IMG/VR virus record: IMGVR_UViG_2778261299_000011
Strand: one strand, 5' to 3'
DNA from: a virus
Taxonomy: Duplodnaviria; Heunggongvirae; Uroviricota; Caudoviricetes
DNA: 42,122 nt
The notes beneath the pieces are model-generated. The model was given only the letters and a program-made list of their open reading frames with translations. It made no database searches and had not been told where the DNA came from. Positions 2,010-42,122 of the stretch are shown piece after piece. The position numbers were made by a program, and so were the translations under genes. Numbering within the stretch: the stretch's first letter is position 1; the number at the start of each line of letters is the position of its first letter.

Positions 2010-2438
2010 TTATTCAATACCTATTCCTGTAATATCTTTTATCTTTTTCCTTGCAAAGCCTTTTGCTAGTGATTTTGAAACACTCATAAGTGTACTAATT
2101 CCCTCATCCTTAAAGTTTGTTTTTATAGCTTGCCAGACATCCTTTTGACGTAAGTCAGCAATAAAATCATGCCCTCTTGCTGTCAACCTCAGTGGTACTT
2201 CGATCCAACTATATCCAACACCTTCCCCTAACGCTTTGGACATTATATGACCGAACCCAGGTTTTCCATCAACCCTGACTATTAATTCGTAGTCACATAA
2301 TAATCGCATATGGAAAATAAAATCTTGGTCATATCTATTAAAGCCATTATCCTCTAGTTCACTAAGCATCGTGTCAGGGCCACGAGTTTTTTCGAATGCG
2401 ATAAGTAGATCTTTTAGATATTGCTGGTCTAATTTCAT
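2010..2438 (-). CDS. Hypothetical protein, 142 aa (AT-rich accessory gene)
   Basis: Clean ORF in a visibly AT-rich stretch; no family recognised. Confidence 0.55.
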   Translation of the reverse strand: MKLDQQYLKDLLIAFEKTRGPDTMLSELEDNGFNRYDQDFIFHMRLLCDYELIVRVDGKPGFGHIMSKALGEGVGYSWIEVPLRLTARGHDFIADLRQKDVWQAIKTNFKDEGISTLMSVSKSLAKGFARKKIKDITGIGIE

Positions 2439-2466
2439 TGCCGCCTCCGTGACATGTCACAGAGAT

Positions 2467-2727
2467 TTATATCATTAATTTTGTTTCGTGCCAGCCTTTG
2501 GTCACCCAGCATTGTGAGTCACCATTACACGGGCATGAATTAACAGGAACTCTCTCGCCGCACTTACCGCAACGTTTTCTGCTGATCGATTTTATACGCC
2601 AGCGCACACGTGCATCATCCTGGCGGCGCGGATACTTCCGGTATCTTTTTACGCGATATTCCCCTTCAATGGCACATACAAGAAGAGAGCCATCCACAGG
2701 AGTGATTGAGGAATCGACAACCAGCAA
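2467..2727 (-). CDS. Hypothetical small Cys-rich protein, possible zinc ribbon (86 aa)
   Basis: ORF with CGKCGERVPVNSCPC cysteine cluster. Confidence 0.4.
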   Translation of the reverse strand: MLVVDSSITPVDGSLLVCAIEGEYRVKRYRKYPRRQDDARVRWRIKSISRKRCGKCGERVPVNSCPCNGDSQCWVTKGWHETKLMI

Positions 2728-2783
2728 CGCTTAATTATCTATAGTGTCGTATTTGCTTCATAAAATATGGCGAATAACACAAA

Positions 2784-2815
2784 GCCCGCAGCAGCTCATT
2801 GTGCGGGCTTTTCTT
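2784..2815. terminator. Stem-loop terminator candidate, orientation ambiguous
   Basis: GCCCGCA-11 nt loop-TGCGGGC hairpin with TTTTCTT on plus side; lies between two minus-strand accessory genes. Confidence 0.4.
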
Positions 2816-2880
2816 ATACCTACTTCCTAGAGATAATTCTATGGAGGCATTAAATCAATACTGTCATTGGTAATATCATA

Positions 2881-3495
2881 TTATCTAAAAGTCTTTCCAC
2901 TTTTAACATCTAGGTATATTCTGTTCGACAACGTCATTCCTCCGCAATATGTGAAATAGATGTTTTTACCCTTATTGCTTGATGCCATCCACCCTCCGAT
3001 TTCCTTAAAATCGCTTTCCGTGCAGACCCCTTCATTTATTAACTTCCTAGCTGCCGAAGAAAACTCTTTTTTGTATATACGGTAGTCATCAGATCCTTTG
3101 ATTAAAGTATCATCTCCGCTCGCATTTTCAGCAGGATCTGATGGCCTTTCACTGCTAAGATCACTAAGTTTAACCCATTCTGAAAACTTGCCATTAACGA
3201 TTCCATTTTTTCTTGTGCAGGATTTATTACCTTCTTTAATATATTCGCTTTCCCCTCCAACACATGAGGCTGAATATGGCTCAGTTATACGAACCCATTC
3301 ACCTTTTTTTTCTAGAAAATCTACGCCTTCCCTGAAAAATAGTTTCCCAGCCACTCCACATTTACTTGAAGGGCAGGTATGTCTTTCCGTTCGATCAACA
3401 ACAACCCATAGTTTTGATTCATTTTTTGCCATTGCCGATGGTATTTGAGATGAGACAATTAACGTAAGCCCTAAAATTAGTATTGATTTTTTCAT
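2881..3495 (-). CDS. Secreted Cys-rich hypothetical protein with N-terminal signal peptide (204 aa)
   Basis: N-terminus MKKSILILGLTLIVSSQIPSAMA is signal-peptide-like; multiple cysteines; AT-rich codon usage. Confidence 0.65.
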   Translation of the reverse strand: MKKSILILGLTLIVSSQIPSAMAKNESKLWVVVDRTERHTCPSSKCGVAGKLFFREGVDFLEKKGEWVRITEPYSASCVGGESEYIKEGNKSCTRKNGIVNGKFSEWVKLSDLSSERPSDPAENASGDDTLIKGSDDYRIYKKEFSSAARKLINEGVCTESDFKEIGGWMASSNKGKNIYFTYCGGMTLSNRIYLDVKSGKTFR

Positions 3496-3793
3496 TGTAA
3501 TTTCCTTTTACTTTTTACAAAGCGTTTAATCATGGCTGATTATCTCTAAGCGTAGTAACAGCCTTGTGCGAAACATGTTACCAAATCGCCATTTCAGTGT
3601 ATCCGCAGTTAGGCTGCCACTTCAAGGATTCCTAATTACATGGTACGTAAGCGTAAAATCCCGTTGGTTGGCTGGTAATAACTCTGATCAAATCTCCCTT
3701 GTCTTTTGCTCTTACGTATGCAGCTCTTGTGTATTCAACCCAGGCCTCCAGTTCAGTAATACGCTTACTTCCATCCGAGATAACACCTTCTAC

Positions 3794-4045
3794 TCACGCT
3801 GCTCGTTGAGTTTTGATTTTTGCTGTCTCCAGCTCAACACGCAGTTTCCCCACCGTTAGCGCAATATCCTCGTTCTCCTGGTCGCGGCGTTTGATGTATT
3901 GCTGGTTTCTTTCCCGTTCATCCAGCAGTGTCAGCACAATCGATGGTGTTACCAGCTCATGGAAAAGGTCCGCGTCAAATCCCCAGTTGTCATGCATTGC
4001 CTGCTCTGCCGCTTCACGCAGTGCCTGAGAGTGAATTACGCTCAC
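3794..4045 (-). CDS. Hypothetical protein (83 aa), early-left operon
   Basis: ORF overlapping the start of the downstream TraR-like gene by 4 nt (operonic coupling). Confidence 0.5.
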   Translation of the reverse strand: MSVIHSQALREAAEQAMHDNWGFDADLFHELVTPSIVLTLLDERERNQQYIKRRDQENEDIALTVGKLRVELETAKIKTQRAA

Positions 4046-4263
4046 TTCGAACCTCTCTGTTTACTGATAAGCTCCAGATCTTCCTGGCAACTTGCACAAG
4101 TCCGACAACCCTGAACGGCCAGGCGTCTTCGCTCATCTATGGGATCGCCACACTCACAACAATGAGTGGCAGATACAGCCTGGTGGTTCAGGCGGCGCAT
4201 TTTTATTGCTGTGTTGCGCTGTAATTCTTCAATTTCTGATGCTGAATCAATGACGTCTGCCAT
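4042..4263 (-). CDS. TraR/DksA-family C4 zinc-finger protein (73 aa)
   Basis: CCECG...17 aa...CRTCASC Cys4 arrangement characteristic of TraR/DksA-type zinc fingers common in lambdoid early-left operons. Confidence 0.75.
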   Translation of the reverse strand: MADVIDSASEIEELQRNTAIKMRRLNHQAVSATHCCECGDPIDERRRLAVQGCRTCASCQEDLELISKQRGSK

Positions 4264-4314
4264 CTTCCATTAATTCCTGAATTGTTGGTTAATACGCTTG
4301 GGGGTAAAGGCGAG

Positions 4315-4339
4315 CAATAAAAAAGGAGCCTGTAGCTCC
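4315..4339 (-). terminator. Rho-independent terminator (minus strand)
   Basis: GGAGC-5 nt loop-GCTCC hairpin followed on the minus strand by TTTTTTATTG. Confidence 0.6.
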
Positions 4340-4361
4340 CTGATAATTTTGCTTTTCATGT

Positions 4362-4577
4362 TCATCGTTCCTTAAAGACGCCGTTTAACATGCCGATTGC
4401 CAGGCTTAAATGAGTCGGTGTGAATCCCATCAGCGTTACCGTTTCGCGGTGCTTCTTCAGTACGCTACGGCAAATGTCATCGACGTTTTTATCCGGAAAC
4501 TGCTGTCTGGCTTTTTTGATTTCAGAATTAGCCTGACGGGCAATGCTGCGAAGGGCGTTTTCCTGCTGAGGTGTCAT
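4362..4577 (-). CDS. Hypothetical protein (71 aa from MTPQQ), lambda orf61-region-like
   Basis: ORF in the exo-proximal small-ORF cluster; likely start MTPQQENALRSIARQ. Confidence 0.45.
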   Translation of the reverse strand: MTPQQENALRSIARQANSEIKKARQQFPDKNVDDICRSVLKKHRETVTLMGFTPTHLSLAIGMLNGVFKER

Positions 4578-4653
4578 TGAACAAGTCCCATGTCGGCAAG
4601 CATAAGCACACAGAATATGAAGCCCGCTGCCAGAAAAATGCATTCAGTGGTTG

Positions 4654-4845
4654 TCATACCTGGTCTCTCTCATCTGCTTCTGCTTTCGCCACCATCATTT
4701 CCAGCTTTTGTGAAAGGGATGCGGCTAACGTATGAAATTCTTCGTCTGTTTCTACTGGTATTGGCACAAACCTGACTCCAATTTGAGCGAGGCTATGTGC
4801 CATCTCGATACTCGTTCTTAACTCAACGGGAGATGCTTTGTGCAT
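4654..4845 (-). CDS. Hypothetical protein (63 aa), lambda orf63-like
   Basis: [63 protein letters not shown]; position and size as lambda orf63 (from memory). Confidence 0.5.
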   Translation of the reverse strand: MHKASPVELRTSIEMAHSLAQIGVRFVPIPVETDEEFHTLAASLSQKLEMMVAKAEADERDQV

Positions 4846-5009
4846 ACAGCCCCCCCCCGTTTATTATTTATCTCCTCAGCCAGCCGCTGTGCTTTCAGGG
4901 GATTTCGGATAACAGGAAGGCCGGGAAATACCCAGCCTCGCTTTGTAACGGAGTAGACGAAAGTGATTGCGCCTACCCGGATATTATCGTGAGGATGCTT
5001 CATCGCCAT
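4818..5009 (-). CDS. Hypothetical protein (63 aa), lambda orf60a-like; contains a 9-nt homopolymer
   Basis: [55 protein letters not shown]...; overlaps exo stop. Confidence 0.5.
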
Positions 5010-5680
5010 TGCTCCCCAAATACAAAACCAATTTCAGCCAGTGCCTCGTCCATTTTTTCGATGAACTCCGGCACCATCTCGTCAAAACTCGCAATGTACT
5101 TTTCATCCCGCTCAACCACGACATAATGCAGTCCTTCACGCTTCATACGCGGGTCATAGTTGGCAAAGTACCAGGCATCTTTTCGTGTCACCCACATGCT
5201 GTACTGCACCTGGGCCATGTAAGCCGATTTTATGGCCTCGAAACCACCGAGCCGGAACTTCATGAAATCCCGGGAGGTAAACGGGCATTTCAGTTCAAGG
5301 CCGTTGCCGTCACTGCATAAACCATCGGGAGAGCAGGCGGTGCGCATACTTTCGTCGCGATAGATGATCGGGGATTCAGTAACATTCACGCCGGAAGTGA
5401 ACTCAAAGAGGGCTCTGGCGTCGTTCTCGTACTGTTTTCCCCAGGCCAGCGCCTTAGCGTTAACTTCCGGAGCCACACCGGTGCAAACCTCGGCAAGCAG
5501 GGTGTGGAAGTAGGACATTTTCATGTCAGGCCACTTCTTTCCGGAGCGGGGTTTTGCTATCACATTGTGAACCTCTGAAGCGGTGATGACGCCGAGCCGT
5601 AATTTGTGCCACGCATCATCCCCCTGTTCGACAGCTCTCACGTCGATCCCGGTACGCTGCAGTATAATGTCCGGTGTCAT
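5000..5680 (-). CDS. exo: Lambda exonuclease (Red alpha)
   Basis: 226 aa; [65 protein letters not shown] matches remembered lambda Exo. Confidence 0.95.
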
Positions 5681-7115: not shown

Positions 7116-7187
7116 GGTGTGCTCCTTATTTATACATAACGAAAAACGACTCGAGTGAAGCGTTATTGGTATGCGGTAACGCCGCGC

Positions 7188-38142: not shown

Positions 38143-38960
38143 TGGCAAAAAATGACTTTAAAGCATTCGCAACGGGTAAAAATGCCAATGTTATGTCGCA
38201 GGAGGAATGGGAAGCGTTGCCTGCGCTTTTATCCGGATTTACAGCAGGGAAAGCATCCAGTGCGCAAGTCAATAAGGTTATTCGGCAGGCCAGCTTTATT
38301 GCTGCAGCTCTGGCCCAGTTTGTAAGTGACAAAACGCAACGGGATGTGCTTGATAATGGTGATCTGCCCGGTTTTGTTGAATTGCTGGGATCGGGGTTTG
38401 CTGTTGAATACCTGAGCCGCAAGAATCCGTTTGGTGATATCAAATCGGATGGCACGGTGAAAACGGCTCTCGAAAACCTTGGTTTGGGAGAAGGCTCAGC
38501 ATTACCTGTTGGGGTGCCTGTTCCGTGGCCTTCAGCCACTCCGCCAACAGGCTGGTTGAAATGCAATGGTGCGGCTTTTTCTGCTGAAGAATATCCCAAA
38601 CTGGCAAAGGTTTATCCGACAAATAAATTGCCTGATTTACGTGGTGAGTTTATTCGTGGCTGGGATGATGGGCGTGGTATTGATGCTGGGCGTGCTTTAT
38701 TGAGCCTTCAGGCTGGAATGCTGGAAAAACACCGCCATATGGTTGTAGCCAACGATGGGTATGATTCAAAAGAGGAATGGGAACTGGCGGCAATCTTCAG
38801 AAAAGCATATACGCAAGGCCGGGGGCTTGATGCTGCCGATGCCGGAGGGACTCTGATTCCATCACCAACGCTACATACACGAGGGAGTATTGGTAACACA
38901 GGTGGGAGAGAAACCCGTCCACGAAATATTGCATTTAACTATATCGTGAGAGCTGCGTAA
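38142..38960 (+). CDS. Tail fibre protein, variable C-terminus within an invertible segment
   Basis: Start ATG overlaps previous stop (ATGA); crossover repeat at 38479-38493 lies inside the gene. Confidence 0.75.
38479..38493 (+). repeat. Left inversion crossover site (inverted repeat partner of 40357-40371)
   Basis: TTGGTTTGGGAGAAG with flanking AAACC; exact reverse complement at 40357-40371; AAACC...GGTTT core resembles Gin/Pin crossover sites. Confidence 0.6.
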
Positions 38961-39562
38961 TGGATAAAGCCGTATTAAATAGCGAACTTATTGCCACGAA
39001 GGCGGGGAATATTACCGTCTATAACTATGATGGTGAAACACGGGAATATATTTCTGAATCAACTGAATATCTTGCTGTTGGCGTCGGTATTCCCGCACAT
39101 TCGTGTTTAGATGCTCCTGGTTCATATAAGTCAGGTTATGTGTCCTGTCGAACTCTGGATTTGAGATCATGGGAATATGTGCCAGACCATCGCGGTGAAA
39201 TCGTCTATAACACCGAAACGGGGGACTCAAAAGAAATCACAGTGCCGGGAGATTACCCTGAAAAGACAACCACTATTGCTCCGTTAACACCATACGATAA
39301 GTGGGATGGTGAGAAATGGGTGACGGATACCAAAGCGCAACATAACGCAGCAGTGGAAGGGGCTGAACTGCAACGCCAGTCACTGATTGATGATGCCATG
39401 TCTTCCATTGTTCTGATTCAACTAAAATTGCAGGCCGGGCGGAAGCTGACGCAGGCAGAAACCACCCGACTTAACGCTGTGCTGGATTACATTGACGCGG
39501 TGACGGCAACAGATTCCAGCACCGCGCCGGATGTCATCTGGCCTGAACTGCCGGAGGCGTAG
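38960..39562 (+). CDS. tfa: Tail fibre assembly protein (Tfa)
   Basis: C-terminal SSTAPDVIWPELP motif characteristic of Tfa chaperones. Confidence 0.8.
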   Translation: MDKAVLNSELIATKAGNITVYNYDGETREYISESTEYLAVGVGIPAHSCLDAPGSYKSGYVSCRTLDLRSWEYVPDHRGEIVYNTETGDSKEITVPGDYPEKTTTIAPLTPYDKWDGEKWVTDTKAQHNAAVEGAELQRQSLIDDAMSSIVLIQLKLQAGRKLTQAETTRLNAVLDYIDAVTATDSSTAPDVIWPELPEA

Positions 39563-39977
39563 GCCATTCAATATCTGGCGCACTGGAGGTATCAACCAGT
39601 TCCAGTGCGTCCAGATAATCCAGCCACAAATTATATTGCGCCAGTTCGTCACCTTTCAGACGACCAATAGCGGCTTTACCGGGCCATTGCTTACTGTTCA
39701 TGTATTCGTTGGCCTGGTTAATTAGTAGCTGTCTTTCTGATTCAGTAATTTCAATAAGCTCTTCATGAGTAGGTGGAGGAATATCTGCCCACGCAGGCAG
39801 CCCATCATCTCCGGCAATACGGATTTTTCCTTGTGGCGGTTCAGCCATAAACTCACTGATAATATTTTGATTTACTTCCTTAGCGTCTGATAAATCCCAT
39901 CCCTCTGATTTATATTTATCAATCATATCCACAGGAAAAAAAGCATTATGCCTTGCGCTATAAACATATTCGTTCAT
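39534..39977 (-). CDS. Alternative tail fibre assembly protein (Tfa'), convergent
   Basis: C-terminal TSSAPDIEWPTPP motif; start MNEYVYSA with AGGGTG SD; 3' ends of the two tfa genes overlap. Confidence 0.75.
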   Translation of the reverse strand: MNEYVYSARHNAFFPVDMIDKYKSEGWDLSDAKEVNQNIISEFMAEPPQGKIRIAGDDGLPAWADIPPPTHEELIEITESERQLLINQANEYMNSKQWPGKAAIGRLKGDELAQYNLWLDYLDALELVDTSSAPDIEWPTPPAVQAR

Positions 39978-39997
39978 ATAAATCACCCTGAATAAAA

Positions 39998-40371
39998 TTA
40001 CTCACCAACAGCCCACCAACTGTAATTCATCGATACCGTGTCGCTGGTTGATGACGTTCTGTAAGCAGAATTAAAGCCGGTTAACGTTGGGCCTTCTGCA
40101 GTCATCACGAACCCTCGCCCAGCGCCTAAAGGCGCACCGCCATCACCAGAATGAGTAAGCATGGCGCAGTCCGCTTTTTTGGGGAAAGGGATGCTGAATG
40201 TAATTCTCATTGTTTGCGTCGATAATGTCGGCGTAACCGCACCACGACCATATTGCAGGATTTTCCCGTTGGGTAATTTCATCCATCCATCACCACTGGC
40301 AAAAGAGGCCATGTCCGGTATCTGATTTCCCCCTGTCCCCACATCCCGTTTTGCCGCTTCTCCCAAACCAA
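39998..40371 (-). CDS. Alternative tail-fibre C-terminal segment (promoterless until inverted)
   Basis: Minus-strand ORF bounded upstream by the inverted crossover repeat; would fuse to the constant fibre N-terminus after inversion. Confidence 0.55.
40357..40371 (-). repeat. Right inversion crossover site
   Basis: Exact reverse complement of 38479-38493. Confidence 0.6.
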
Positions 40372-40437
40372 CGTTTATGAAAATGCAGAAATAATGAGCA
40401 AATGGCATCATTCCTGCTTTTGTCAGGGGGATCTACC

Positions 40438-40548
40438 ATGCTTATTGGCTATGTACGCGTGTCAACAAATGACCAGAACACAGATCTACAACGTAATGCA
40501 CTGAACTGTGCAGGATGCGAGCTGATTTTTGAAGACAAGATAAGTAGT
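40438..40548 (+). pseudogene. Truncated Gin/Pin-family serine DNA invertase (first ~37 codons only)
   Basis: MLIGYVRVSTNDQNTDLQRNALNCAGCELIFEDK matches the conserved N-terminus with catalytic Ser; similarity stops near 40546 where composition turns AT-rich. Confidence 0.7.
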
Positions 40549-40551
40549 GCT

Positions 40552-41142
40552 ATGGGGGTTAGGCATTATAATTGGTTGTTAAAAATCAATAAGTTTTGTA
40601 TTGTTGTGATGATATTACCATCATGTTACAAGGTGTGGATTTTGGCGAAGTTACTATATGTAAAACCTATAACGATAAAAAAAGCAAATGAATTTGTTTC
40701 TATTTATCATCGACACCATCGACCAACGTCAAGGAATTCGGGCAGATGGGCTATAGCTGCCTACCACATAGATTCTGATGAATTGGTTGGTGTAGCGATA
40801 GTTGGAAATCCCGTATCTGCAACGTACATGGATGGTGTGACGGCAGAGATTACACGATTATGTGTCAGTGACAAATCTCCAAAAGGAACTTGCTCCTTTC
40901 TGATTAGTCGATGTAGCACAATCTGGAAAATGATGGGAGGAGAAAAAATTATTACCTATACTCTAAGCAGTGAAACAGGCGCATCTTTAAAAGGTGCTGG
41001 GTGGCAGTTAGTTGGGACTGTACATCCTCATAATCGTTGGGCCGATAAAGCAAAGCAGGATGGAATAATTAGGGATAATTTAGAAATATATAAACTGAAG
41101 AAATTTCGTTGGGAATGTTTACTCGGGGAGGTTCTAATATGA
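40552..41142 (+). CDS. Hypothetical protein in AT-rich cassette (start uncertain; in frame with invertase remnant)
   Basis: Open frame continuing from the invertase remnant; contains HRHHRP His cluster; no family recognised; stop overlaps next ATG (ATGA). Confidence 0.45.
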   Translation: MGVRHYNWLLKINKFCIVVMILPSCYKVWILAKLLYVKPITIKKANEFVSIYHRHHRPTSRNSGRWAIAAYHIDSDELVGVAIVGNPVSATYMDGVTAEITRLCVSDKSPKGTCSFLISRCSTIWKMMGGEKIITYTLSSETGASLKGAGWQLVGTVHPHNRWADKAKQDGIIRDNLEIYKLKKFRWECLLGEVLI

Positions 41143-42122
41143 GAGTTATGGCAGCGTTTAGCTCTGATTCCAGAGAACAATATAAAGCTGATATATTCAA
41201 GGTGTTAAGTTTGCCAAAAGGTGATGTCATTCATTTTAGATACAAAAAGAAATATGTTGAGGCTTGCATTTATCAACAACGGCAAGCGATAGTTGGTAGT
41301 GATGTATTCATTTATTTTTCGCAAGGAAATACAATGAATGAAAATAAAAAATTGATCCATAAATCAATTAGGAAGGCGAAAATAATTTCGTTTGACTGGA
41401 GTGATATGACCGAACTTTATCATGTTCGGATGATTCTTGGGGATTTTATTAATGCTGAAATTTGTAATCAGGGAGATGATGGGCTTTTCTTAAAATATAT
41501 AGAATGTAACGATTCTGATTATTATAGCAACTGGAAAAGTAGGGTGGAAGAAGTTAGGTGCGCATTTCCTGATATGATGTTTTTTTCTATTGATGGTATC
41601 CTTGACTCTCTAGGAAGAAGAGTTATTCCGAAATACAACCCTCAAAGTAAAGGGTGTTTCTATGAAGTATATCATGGTGATAGGTACACTATAAATATAA
41701 AAGTAGCGAATCTTGATGGAGCTTCTAAAAAATTACTTATAAATTGTAGTCCTGATGATGTTGTGATTGCACATTGTAATCCTATAGAATCATCTGTTGA
41801 TTATGATGATATTTATATTCCACTTAATATCAAAACGTTGCCTTTTTTTAAACACTCAAACTTTTTATCATATAAAGTAATTAATGTAGAAAGTGACGGC
41901 ACTAGTGGGAATTCTAATGGTGAAATTAAAGGGGGTGGGGTGGGTAAAAATGTTGACTTTGATATGTATACAGTGGCACAAGAACTATGTCTGAGACTTA
42001 ATTTAAAAAGTGCTATTATGTTTGGATTGTTATGTTTGATGGCTTTTTTGGCAATGGTATTCGTTAGTGATAAAAATACAATGATTGTTTGGCCCTATAT
42101 TAAAATAGGTATGTCGGCTATT
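41139..42122 (+). CDS. Hypothetical protein, at least 328 aa, C-terminal hydrophobic segment; 3' end beyond window
   Basis: Hand-translated frame open from ATG 41139 to window end (absent from ORF track, which has no downstream stop); hydrophobic stretch AIMFGLLCLMAFLAMVFV. Confidence 0.6.
   Translation, partial: MRVMAAFSSDSREQYKADIFKVLSLPKGDVIHFRYKKKYVEACIYQQRQAIVGSDVFIYFSQGNTMNENKKLIHKSIRKAKIISFDWSDMTELYHVRMILGDFINAEICNQGDDGLFLKYIECNDSDYYSNWKSRVEEVRCAFPDMMFFSIDGILDSLGRRVIPKYNPQSKGCFYEVYHGDRYTINIKVANLDGASKKLLINCSPDDVVIAHCNPIESSVDYDDIYIPLNIKTLPFFKHSNFLSYKVINVESDGTSGNSNGEIKGGGVGKNVDFDMYTVAQELCLRLNLKSAIMFGLLCLMAFLAMVFVSDKNTMIVWPYIKIGMSAI

Follow-up and report, generated by a model that had tools for sequence, protein, structure and literature searches.

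We analysed a 42,122-bp stretch of DNA (IMG/VR record IMGVR_UViG_2778261299_000011; "the window" denotes this whole stretch throughout) that carries, within and behind a tail-fibre gene, an inverted repeat, two alternative fibre ends and the first codons of a DNA invertase gene. We conclude that this region is very probably an invertible tail-fibre segment of the e14/Mu type, dependent on a Fis-bound enhancer, whose own invertase has been destroyed and which is still a substrate for invertases that act in trans. The conclusion is carried by the anatomy of the crossover sites, by an alternative fibre that can be read in frame, by the truncation of the invertase gene and by clean inversions among copies of the truncated allele, all of which are observed directly.

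The course of events that we propose is as follows: AT-rich cargo, consisting of a Mom-like gene of the XF1762 family and a second gene, would have replaced everything past codon 36 of a PinE-type invertase gene and thereby destroyed the enzyme, and both 26-bp crossover sites together with the first 107 bp of the invertase gene, including a predicted enhancer, would have survived in cis. Because the cis-acting parts all survive, the segment would remain a substrate for Pin-family invertases from other prophages or plasmids (PinE of e14, PinQ and PinR of Qin and Rac, or similar enzymes). Each inversion would exchange the receptor-binding C-terminus of the fibre, from the Collar type to the Gp53-like type or back, along with the matching chaperone.

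Crossover sites and alternative fibres

The 15-mer TTGGTTTGGGAGAAG occurs in exactly two places in the window, on opposite strands and with zero mismatches (38479-38493 on the plus strand and 40357-40371 on the minus strand, as recovered by a sequence search of the window), and the pairing reaches 20 nt when one mismatch is accepted (38474-38493 with 40357-40376). A repeat that had arisen by chance was ruled out: the two exact copies in 42 kb compare with a mean of 0.12 matches in 100 shuffles in which up to two mismatches were allowed, and the sites are identical to those of e14. The left crossover site has a length of 26 bp, lies within the fibre gene at 38467-38492 and reads CTCTCGAAAACC-TT-GGTTTGGGAGAA, its inner half being one arm of the exact repeat. 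The right site, equally long, lies at 40358-40383 and reads TTCTCCCAAACC-AA-CGTTTATGAAAA. Each consists of two 12-bp half-sites that flank a 2-bp core; the cores, TT and AA, are complementary, and the sites are inverted relative to each other, as is characteristic of switches of this class. The cores (38479/80 and 40370/71) are 1.89 kb apart.

The left site divides the constant N-terminal part of the fibre from alternative C-termini that each have their own chaperone, which is again the arrangement of the class. In the list of open reading frames (ORFs) the currently assembled fibre gene covers 38124-38960 on the plus strand (278 amino acids from the ATG at 38124; PHROG tail-fibre families). 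We place its start at the ATG at 38142, which overlaps the stop codon of the upstream DUF2612 baseplate gene and is probably the true one, because the relatives are annotated at the equivalent position. The constant part ends at about 38478 and is followed by a variable C-terminus with a Collar domain (38481-38960, plus strand; Pfam Collar E 9.7e-15, residues 130-177). This currently expressed C-terminus is paired with a TfaE-like tail-fibre assembly chaperone of 200 amino acids (38960-39562, plus strand; Pfam Caudo_TAP E 1.6e-29), the homologue of which is annotated as tfaE in one of the related loci that we compared (L002). Convergent with it runs the gene for a second chaperone of 147-150 amino acids (39534-39986, minus strand; Pfam Caudo_TAP E 3.6e-31), the partner of a silent, alternative C-terminus of the Gp53-like_C type (39998-40369, minus strand; Pfam E 1e-12). 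When 38480-40370 was inverted in silico, the constant part and the alternative C-terminus were joined in frame to a fibre of 242 amino acids, and the Gp53-like C-terminus is the annotated, expressed form in three of the related loci (L002, L015 and L019).

A consensus scan for minus-strand promoters near 40371-40460 yielded none, with overall counts below the mean of the shuffles; this is consistent with a promoterless silent C-terminus and is otherwise uninformative. The frame of the silent C-terminus (39998-40411, minus strand) is open through the right site as far as the ATG at 40411, which lies beyond the segment, and is the counterpart of stfE in e14. The flipped version of the e14 protein, StfE2, has been reported to block adsorption of phage T2 (PMC12529663). 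By analogy, the minus-strand ORF that starts at 40411 could supply the host with an anti-phage protein that depends on the flip.

The closest known system is the P segment of e14 in E. coli K-12. Both 26-bp sites of the window equal those of e14 base for base (locus L008, positions 2779 for the left and 4606 for the right site), and the layout is shared from end to end: constant part of the fibre, site, C-terminus with tfa, convergent tfa with C-terminus, site, start of the invertase gene. From site to invertase the identity amounts to 95% over 188 bp, and in parts of the segment, namely the StfE/TfaE-like cassette, it is 85-96%, with an orientation opposite to that of the K-12 reference. The window differs from e14 in that its invertase gene breaks off after codon 36 and continues in frame as an XF1762/Mom-like gene, and in that it represents a full-size prophage of about 42 kb and not an e14 element at icd; its relatives adjoin torT or intS/argW. 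The G segment of phage Mu, with its invertase Gin, is similar in having a constant fibre part, two C-termini with chaperones, an invertase gene beside the right site, 26-bp sites with an AAACC-NN-GGTTT centre, a strongly conserved 5' part of the invertase gene and a mom gene just downstream of gin. It differs in the outer halves of the sites, in its unrelated cassettes and in that Gin is complete. The C segment of P1, with its invertase Cin, follows the same logic as the Mu G segment.

Much of this anatomy had been claimed in a preliminary description of the DNA that was made from the letters alone. The exact 15-bp inverted repeat within looser sites of about 26 bp is real, the bracketed convergent tfa genes and alternative fibre C-terminus agree with the ORFs and the Pfam domains, and the likeness to the Mu G and P1 C segments extends to the P segment of e14, the P1 part of the comparison being taken from general knowledge. 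Both window sites also contain the repeats printed for the inversion sites of PinE and PinQ in a 2025 paper (PMC12529663).

Truncation of the invertase and orientation of the truncated allele

What is left of the invertase gene comprises codons 1-36 (40438-40544, plus strand), as delimited by alignments with pinE genes, including that of e14, and with Mu gin. DNA similarity to all of these ends at 40544/40545, i.e. at codon 36 of about 184, and the remnant protein that starts at the ATG at 40438, MLIGYVRVSTNDQNTDLQRNALNCAGCELIFEDKIS, is identical to residues 1-36 of PinE, the e14 enzyme of K-12. The Pfam Resolvase match covers residues 3-38 only (profile positions 2-45 of 145), HTH_7, the helix-turn-helix (HTH) domain, is absent, and the match to the PHROG DNA invertase family is confined to residues 1-37. 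The segment therefore lacks what members of the class have beside them, namely a complete small serine invertase with catalytic domain, E helix and HTH. Because the Resolvase match is partial and the HTH absent, the resident invertase is dead, most of its catalytic domain and all of its HTH being gone. Residual activity of the 234-residue fusion protein of which the remnant is now a part was ruled out as well, since 36 recombinase residues are all that is left. The preliminary description had recognized the truncation and put its end at 40548, within 4 nt of the breakpoint, and a comparison with an intact relative leads to the same junction: in STEFF_1, a close relative that has an intact pinE of 184 codons, the identity is 94% over 37400-40544 and the similarity ends at the truncation junction.

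The junction was found in six complete E. coli genomes out of 5426, in three IMG/VR contigs and in two metagenome contigs, and 612 blocks of a large assembly collection have the exact 234-residue fusion protein in their index; a scan of species-representative genomes gave no match to the junction. Seventeen distinct loci could be read for orientation, of which 13 are oriented like the window and four are flipped (L002, L004, L015 and L019). Each chromosomal context, beside torT and beside intS/argW, has copies of either orientation, and so does each of the three sequence backgrounds that can be distinguished in the 176 bp from the right site to the junction. The same truncated allele is thus present in either orientation in other genomes, as is typical of this class of segments. 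The clearest pair is formed by L002 (MEI1A-0323) and L016 (GCA_037165205.1), the flanks of which are identical (3062/3062 positions on the left, 1764/1764 on the right), and in which the 1870 nt from one core dinucleotide to the other are exactly reverse-complemented. This is what a conservative site-specific inversion leaves behind, here in an allele that lacks an invertase of its own.

That the two orientations were imported, through homologous recombination or gene conversion, from related prophages with a working invertase is quite improbable. It does not account for the pair L002 and L016: differences would be expected to accompany a segment that came from elsewhere, whereas in these two loci the flanks and the segment are identical and the breakpoints fall exactly at the 2-bp cores; the crossover would also have needed to fall within the 176 bp that separate site and junction. 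Between copies, the other flipped ones included, some of the cassettes do vary, as does the spacer that separates the right site from the invertase ATG, and in their segments L015 and L019 reach only about 95% identity with their same-background partners, as import would have it. The variation in cassettes and in the stretch from right site to junction indicates that homologous exchange with other prophages also occurs.

RecA-dependent recombination between inverted repeats of 15-20 bp, without any invertase, would yield a product that looks like that of a site-specific inversion by sequence alone. Repeats of this size are below the length needed for efficient RecA-dependent recombination in E. 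coli, the repeats in question are exactly the substrates of the e14 invertase, and the inversion is recurrent on three backgrounds; we consider this explanation very improbable.

Two of the loci with the truncated allele have peculiarities of their own. The metagenome contig OAVX01000574.1 (L014) carries the junction and ends, at locus position 7129, one nucleotide inside the right repeat; this is the pattern expected when a sample contains mixed orientations, and it constitutes a single, weak hint. In E. coli LH10-b-1 (L004, positions 2100-5100) there are three crossover-type sites (2853, 3367 and 4982) and three C-terminal cassettes of the Collar type, together with a complete serine recombinase of 190 amino acids that is located on the left side and points away; the tail and baseplate module is missing. 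This locus looks like the outcome of further rearrangement, possibly mediated by an invertase.

Retained cis elements and candidate invertases in trans

Recombinational enhancers sit inside invertase genes, and the 107 bp of the gene that have been kept here are near-invariant when the window is compared with two pinE genes and with Mu gin. Within them we recognize a predicted enhancer (40459-40522), identified by homology and geometry, that is delimited by two 15-mers of the G-N13-C type to which Fis would bind: GTGTCAACAAATGAC at 40459-40473 and GTGCAGGATGCGAGC at 40508-40522. The centre of the first is about 96 bp from the core of the right crossover site, the motif TAATG is found between the two (40494-40498), and the truncation point lies 22 bp beyond the second, distal one. 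Inversion of the Hin type requires two crossover sites and a 65-bp enhancer that has Fis sites at both ends and is normally located at about 100 bp from hix, and TAATG is one of the AT-rich motifs named for the hin enhancer between its Fis sites (PMC3798978); the spacing in the window agrees with these published values. A stimulating site of Mu "within the invertase gene" figures in the title of Kahmann et al. 1985, as listed in the same paper. The known cis requirements, i.e. both sites and the predicted enhancer, thus all appear to be intact.

We searched for possible sources of an invertase in the six complete E. coli chromosomes that bear the allele, using chimeric queries in which the unique cargo was joined to invertase genes. 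The cargo alone, which served as the baseline, matched exactly one place in each of the six. On top of this, each of the six showed one extra megablast match to pinQ and between one and four extra places that resemble serine recombinases; these numbers are counts of matching places and not of located, intact genes. Among complete E. coli genomes in general, about 39% contain sequence like the pix site together with the 5' end of pinE, and about 52% contain pinQ-like sequence. The enzymes of this family are known to act on each other's segments: PinQ, PinR and PinE were each reported to invert the e14 segment (PMC12529663), PinE was reported to invert the G segment of Mu, and the H segment of Salmonella is inverted, in the absence of Hin, by Fin of Fels-2, as cited in PMC4122451. 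The action of PinQ and PinR on e14 and of Fin on the H segment is of the kind proposed here, in that an invertase flips a segment that it does not adjoin. The difference is that the e14 and H segments keep an invertase of their own, PinE and Hin respectively, whereas the gene in the window is destroyed and switching would depend wholly on outside enzymes. The enzyme that flips the truncated allele would thus be one of the Pin family, Fis would act through the enhancer in the remnant, and switching may take place in the lysogen from which the window derives.

Several points weigh against this reading, in addition to the homologous exchange described above. The Fis-bound enhancer is putative, its assignment to 40459-40522 being made by homology and geometry only. 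The majority of the surveyed loci share the orientation of the window, and because 13 of the 17 do so, flipping may be rare. As to other invertases of the Gin/Pin/Hin family, which had been raised in the preliminary description, tblastn with full PinE returned nothing but the remnant from the window, and it is in the allele-bearing chromosomes, six out of six, that pinQ-like sequence is found. Finally, deletion of pinE in K-12 was reported to leave the e14 segment locked despite the presence of pinQ and pinR (PMC12529663). The native levels of PinQ and PinR could be too low for switching; equally, the enhancer could have been lost with pinE, whereas the window keeps the enhancer region. The deletion leaves the question undecided, because it would also remove the enhancer that is kept here.

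The preliminary description had taken the switch to be frozen in its current orientation unless another invertase acts in trans, and it is this latter clause that has become the best-supported reading. A fossil segment, with a phage fixed on its Collar-type fibre, would be in line with a non-functional invertase in cis, with a window that has no other serine recombinase, with the prevalence of one orientation among the copies and with the lock reported for K-12, and is nonetheless unlikely: the flipped allele exists on three backgrounds, in one case as an exact inversion relative to a locus that is identical in all other respects, the two sites have stayed intact, as has the enhancer region, and candidate sequences for invertases in trans are present in every complete genome that has the allele. 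The term locked is unsupported because the identical truncated allele, with the same junction and the same 234-residue fusion, occurs in both orientations elsewhere, and as a general statement on the allele a frozen state is contradicted by the flipped copies, as judged from their sequences. For the window's own host a frozen state is possible if a compatible invertase is absent, and in any host without such an enzyme the segment would be static.

Cargo genes, prophage context and implications

Past 40544/40545 the GC content drops from about 0.47-0.50 to 0.31-0.40, and AT-rich cargo stands in place of the 3' four-fifths of the invertase gene. Its first gene (40545-41142, plus strand) is fused in frame to the remnant, the whole ORF running from 40438 to 41142, and belongs to the XF1762 family (NCBIfam NF045478 XF1762_fam, 168.9 bits against a cut-off of 50, residues 75-226). 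It also matches phrog_1384, a family of Mom-like DNA-modification proteins (E 2.9e-38), and the Pfam Mom score of the fusion is 23.5 bits, under the cut-off of 27.1. A literature search for "XF1762" found no papers, and RefSeq labels the whole fusion of invertase and cargo "XF1762 family protein". The second gene (41139-42122, plus strand) extends past the end of the window and encodes 344 amino acids in relatives; it had zero matches in Pfam, NCBIfam or PADLOC, and its homologue in L003 matches phrog_30351 (E 4.5e-196). The cargo was also considered as a defence system and rejected as such, there being no credible PADLOC match. The order of segment, invertase and Mom-like gene parallels the order in Mu (G segment, gin, com, mom). 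An independent truncation of an invertase is found in a related phage, vB_EcoM-606R2 (L001, 5970-6284), where 104 amino acids are left (Resolvase positions 2-98, without HTH); here too the 5' end is retained beside an invertible segment, with different cargo downstream.

The window encodes an integrase, replication functions, terminase and a contractile tail with a Mu-like baseplate, with the switch at the right end of the prophage, and represents a full prophage of E. coli of about 42 kb. Among the relatives, L002, L016, L018 and L023 are located beside intS and the tRNA-Arg gene argW, and L003, L005, L015, L017, L019 and L022 beside torT; between the two contexts the right end of the prophage, with fibre switch and cargo, is more than 98% identical. 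Just upstream of the baseplate spike gene the window carries a gene for a YafO-type toxin of 138 amino acids (34699-35115, plus strand; Pfam E 4e-17), a slot that is taken by a DUF2335 gene in L002 and by two hypothetical genes in L003.

Cross-complementation among these invertases is already known, and the system is in that sense incremental and not a new mechanism. What is slightly new is that a natural and widespread allele has had its invertase swapped for cargo and that its segment still flips; such an orphan segment forms the converse of PinQ and PinR, which are orphan invertases. A bolder thought, which we put forward tentatively and hold to be rather less probable than not, is that the 107-bp stump is a retained cis module and not debris, so that the switch would have been handed over to co-resident PinQ, PinR or PinE and the prophages present in each host would determine whether and how fast the tropism of the phage switches. 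The basis for it lies in the 22-bp margin past the distal Fis-type site, in the spread over 612 blocks and in the allele that is still flipping.

A truncated or missing invertase beside an invertible segment is consequently not in itself a sign that the switch is locked: as long as the sites are preserved along with the 5' stump that bears the enhancer, inversion can be kept going by other enzymes of the Pin family. The annotation "XF1762 family protein" conceals such an invertase remnant, and in predictions of host range or receptor for prophages of this kind both fibre forms are to be considered. The allele presents a natural case of cross-talk between prophages.

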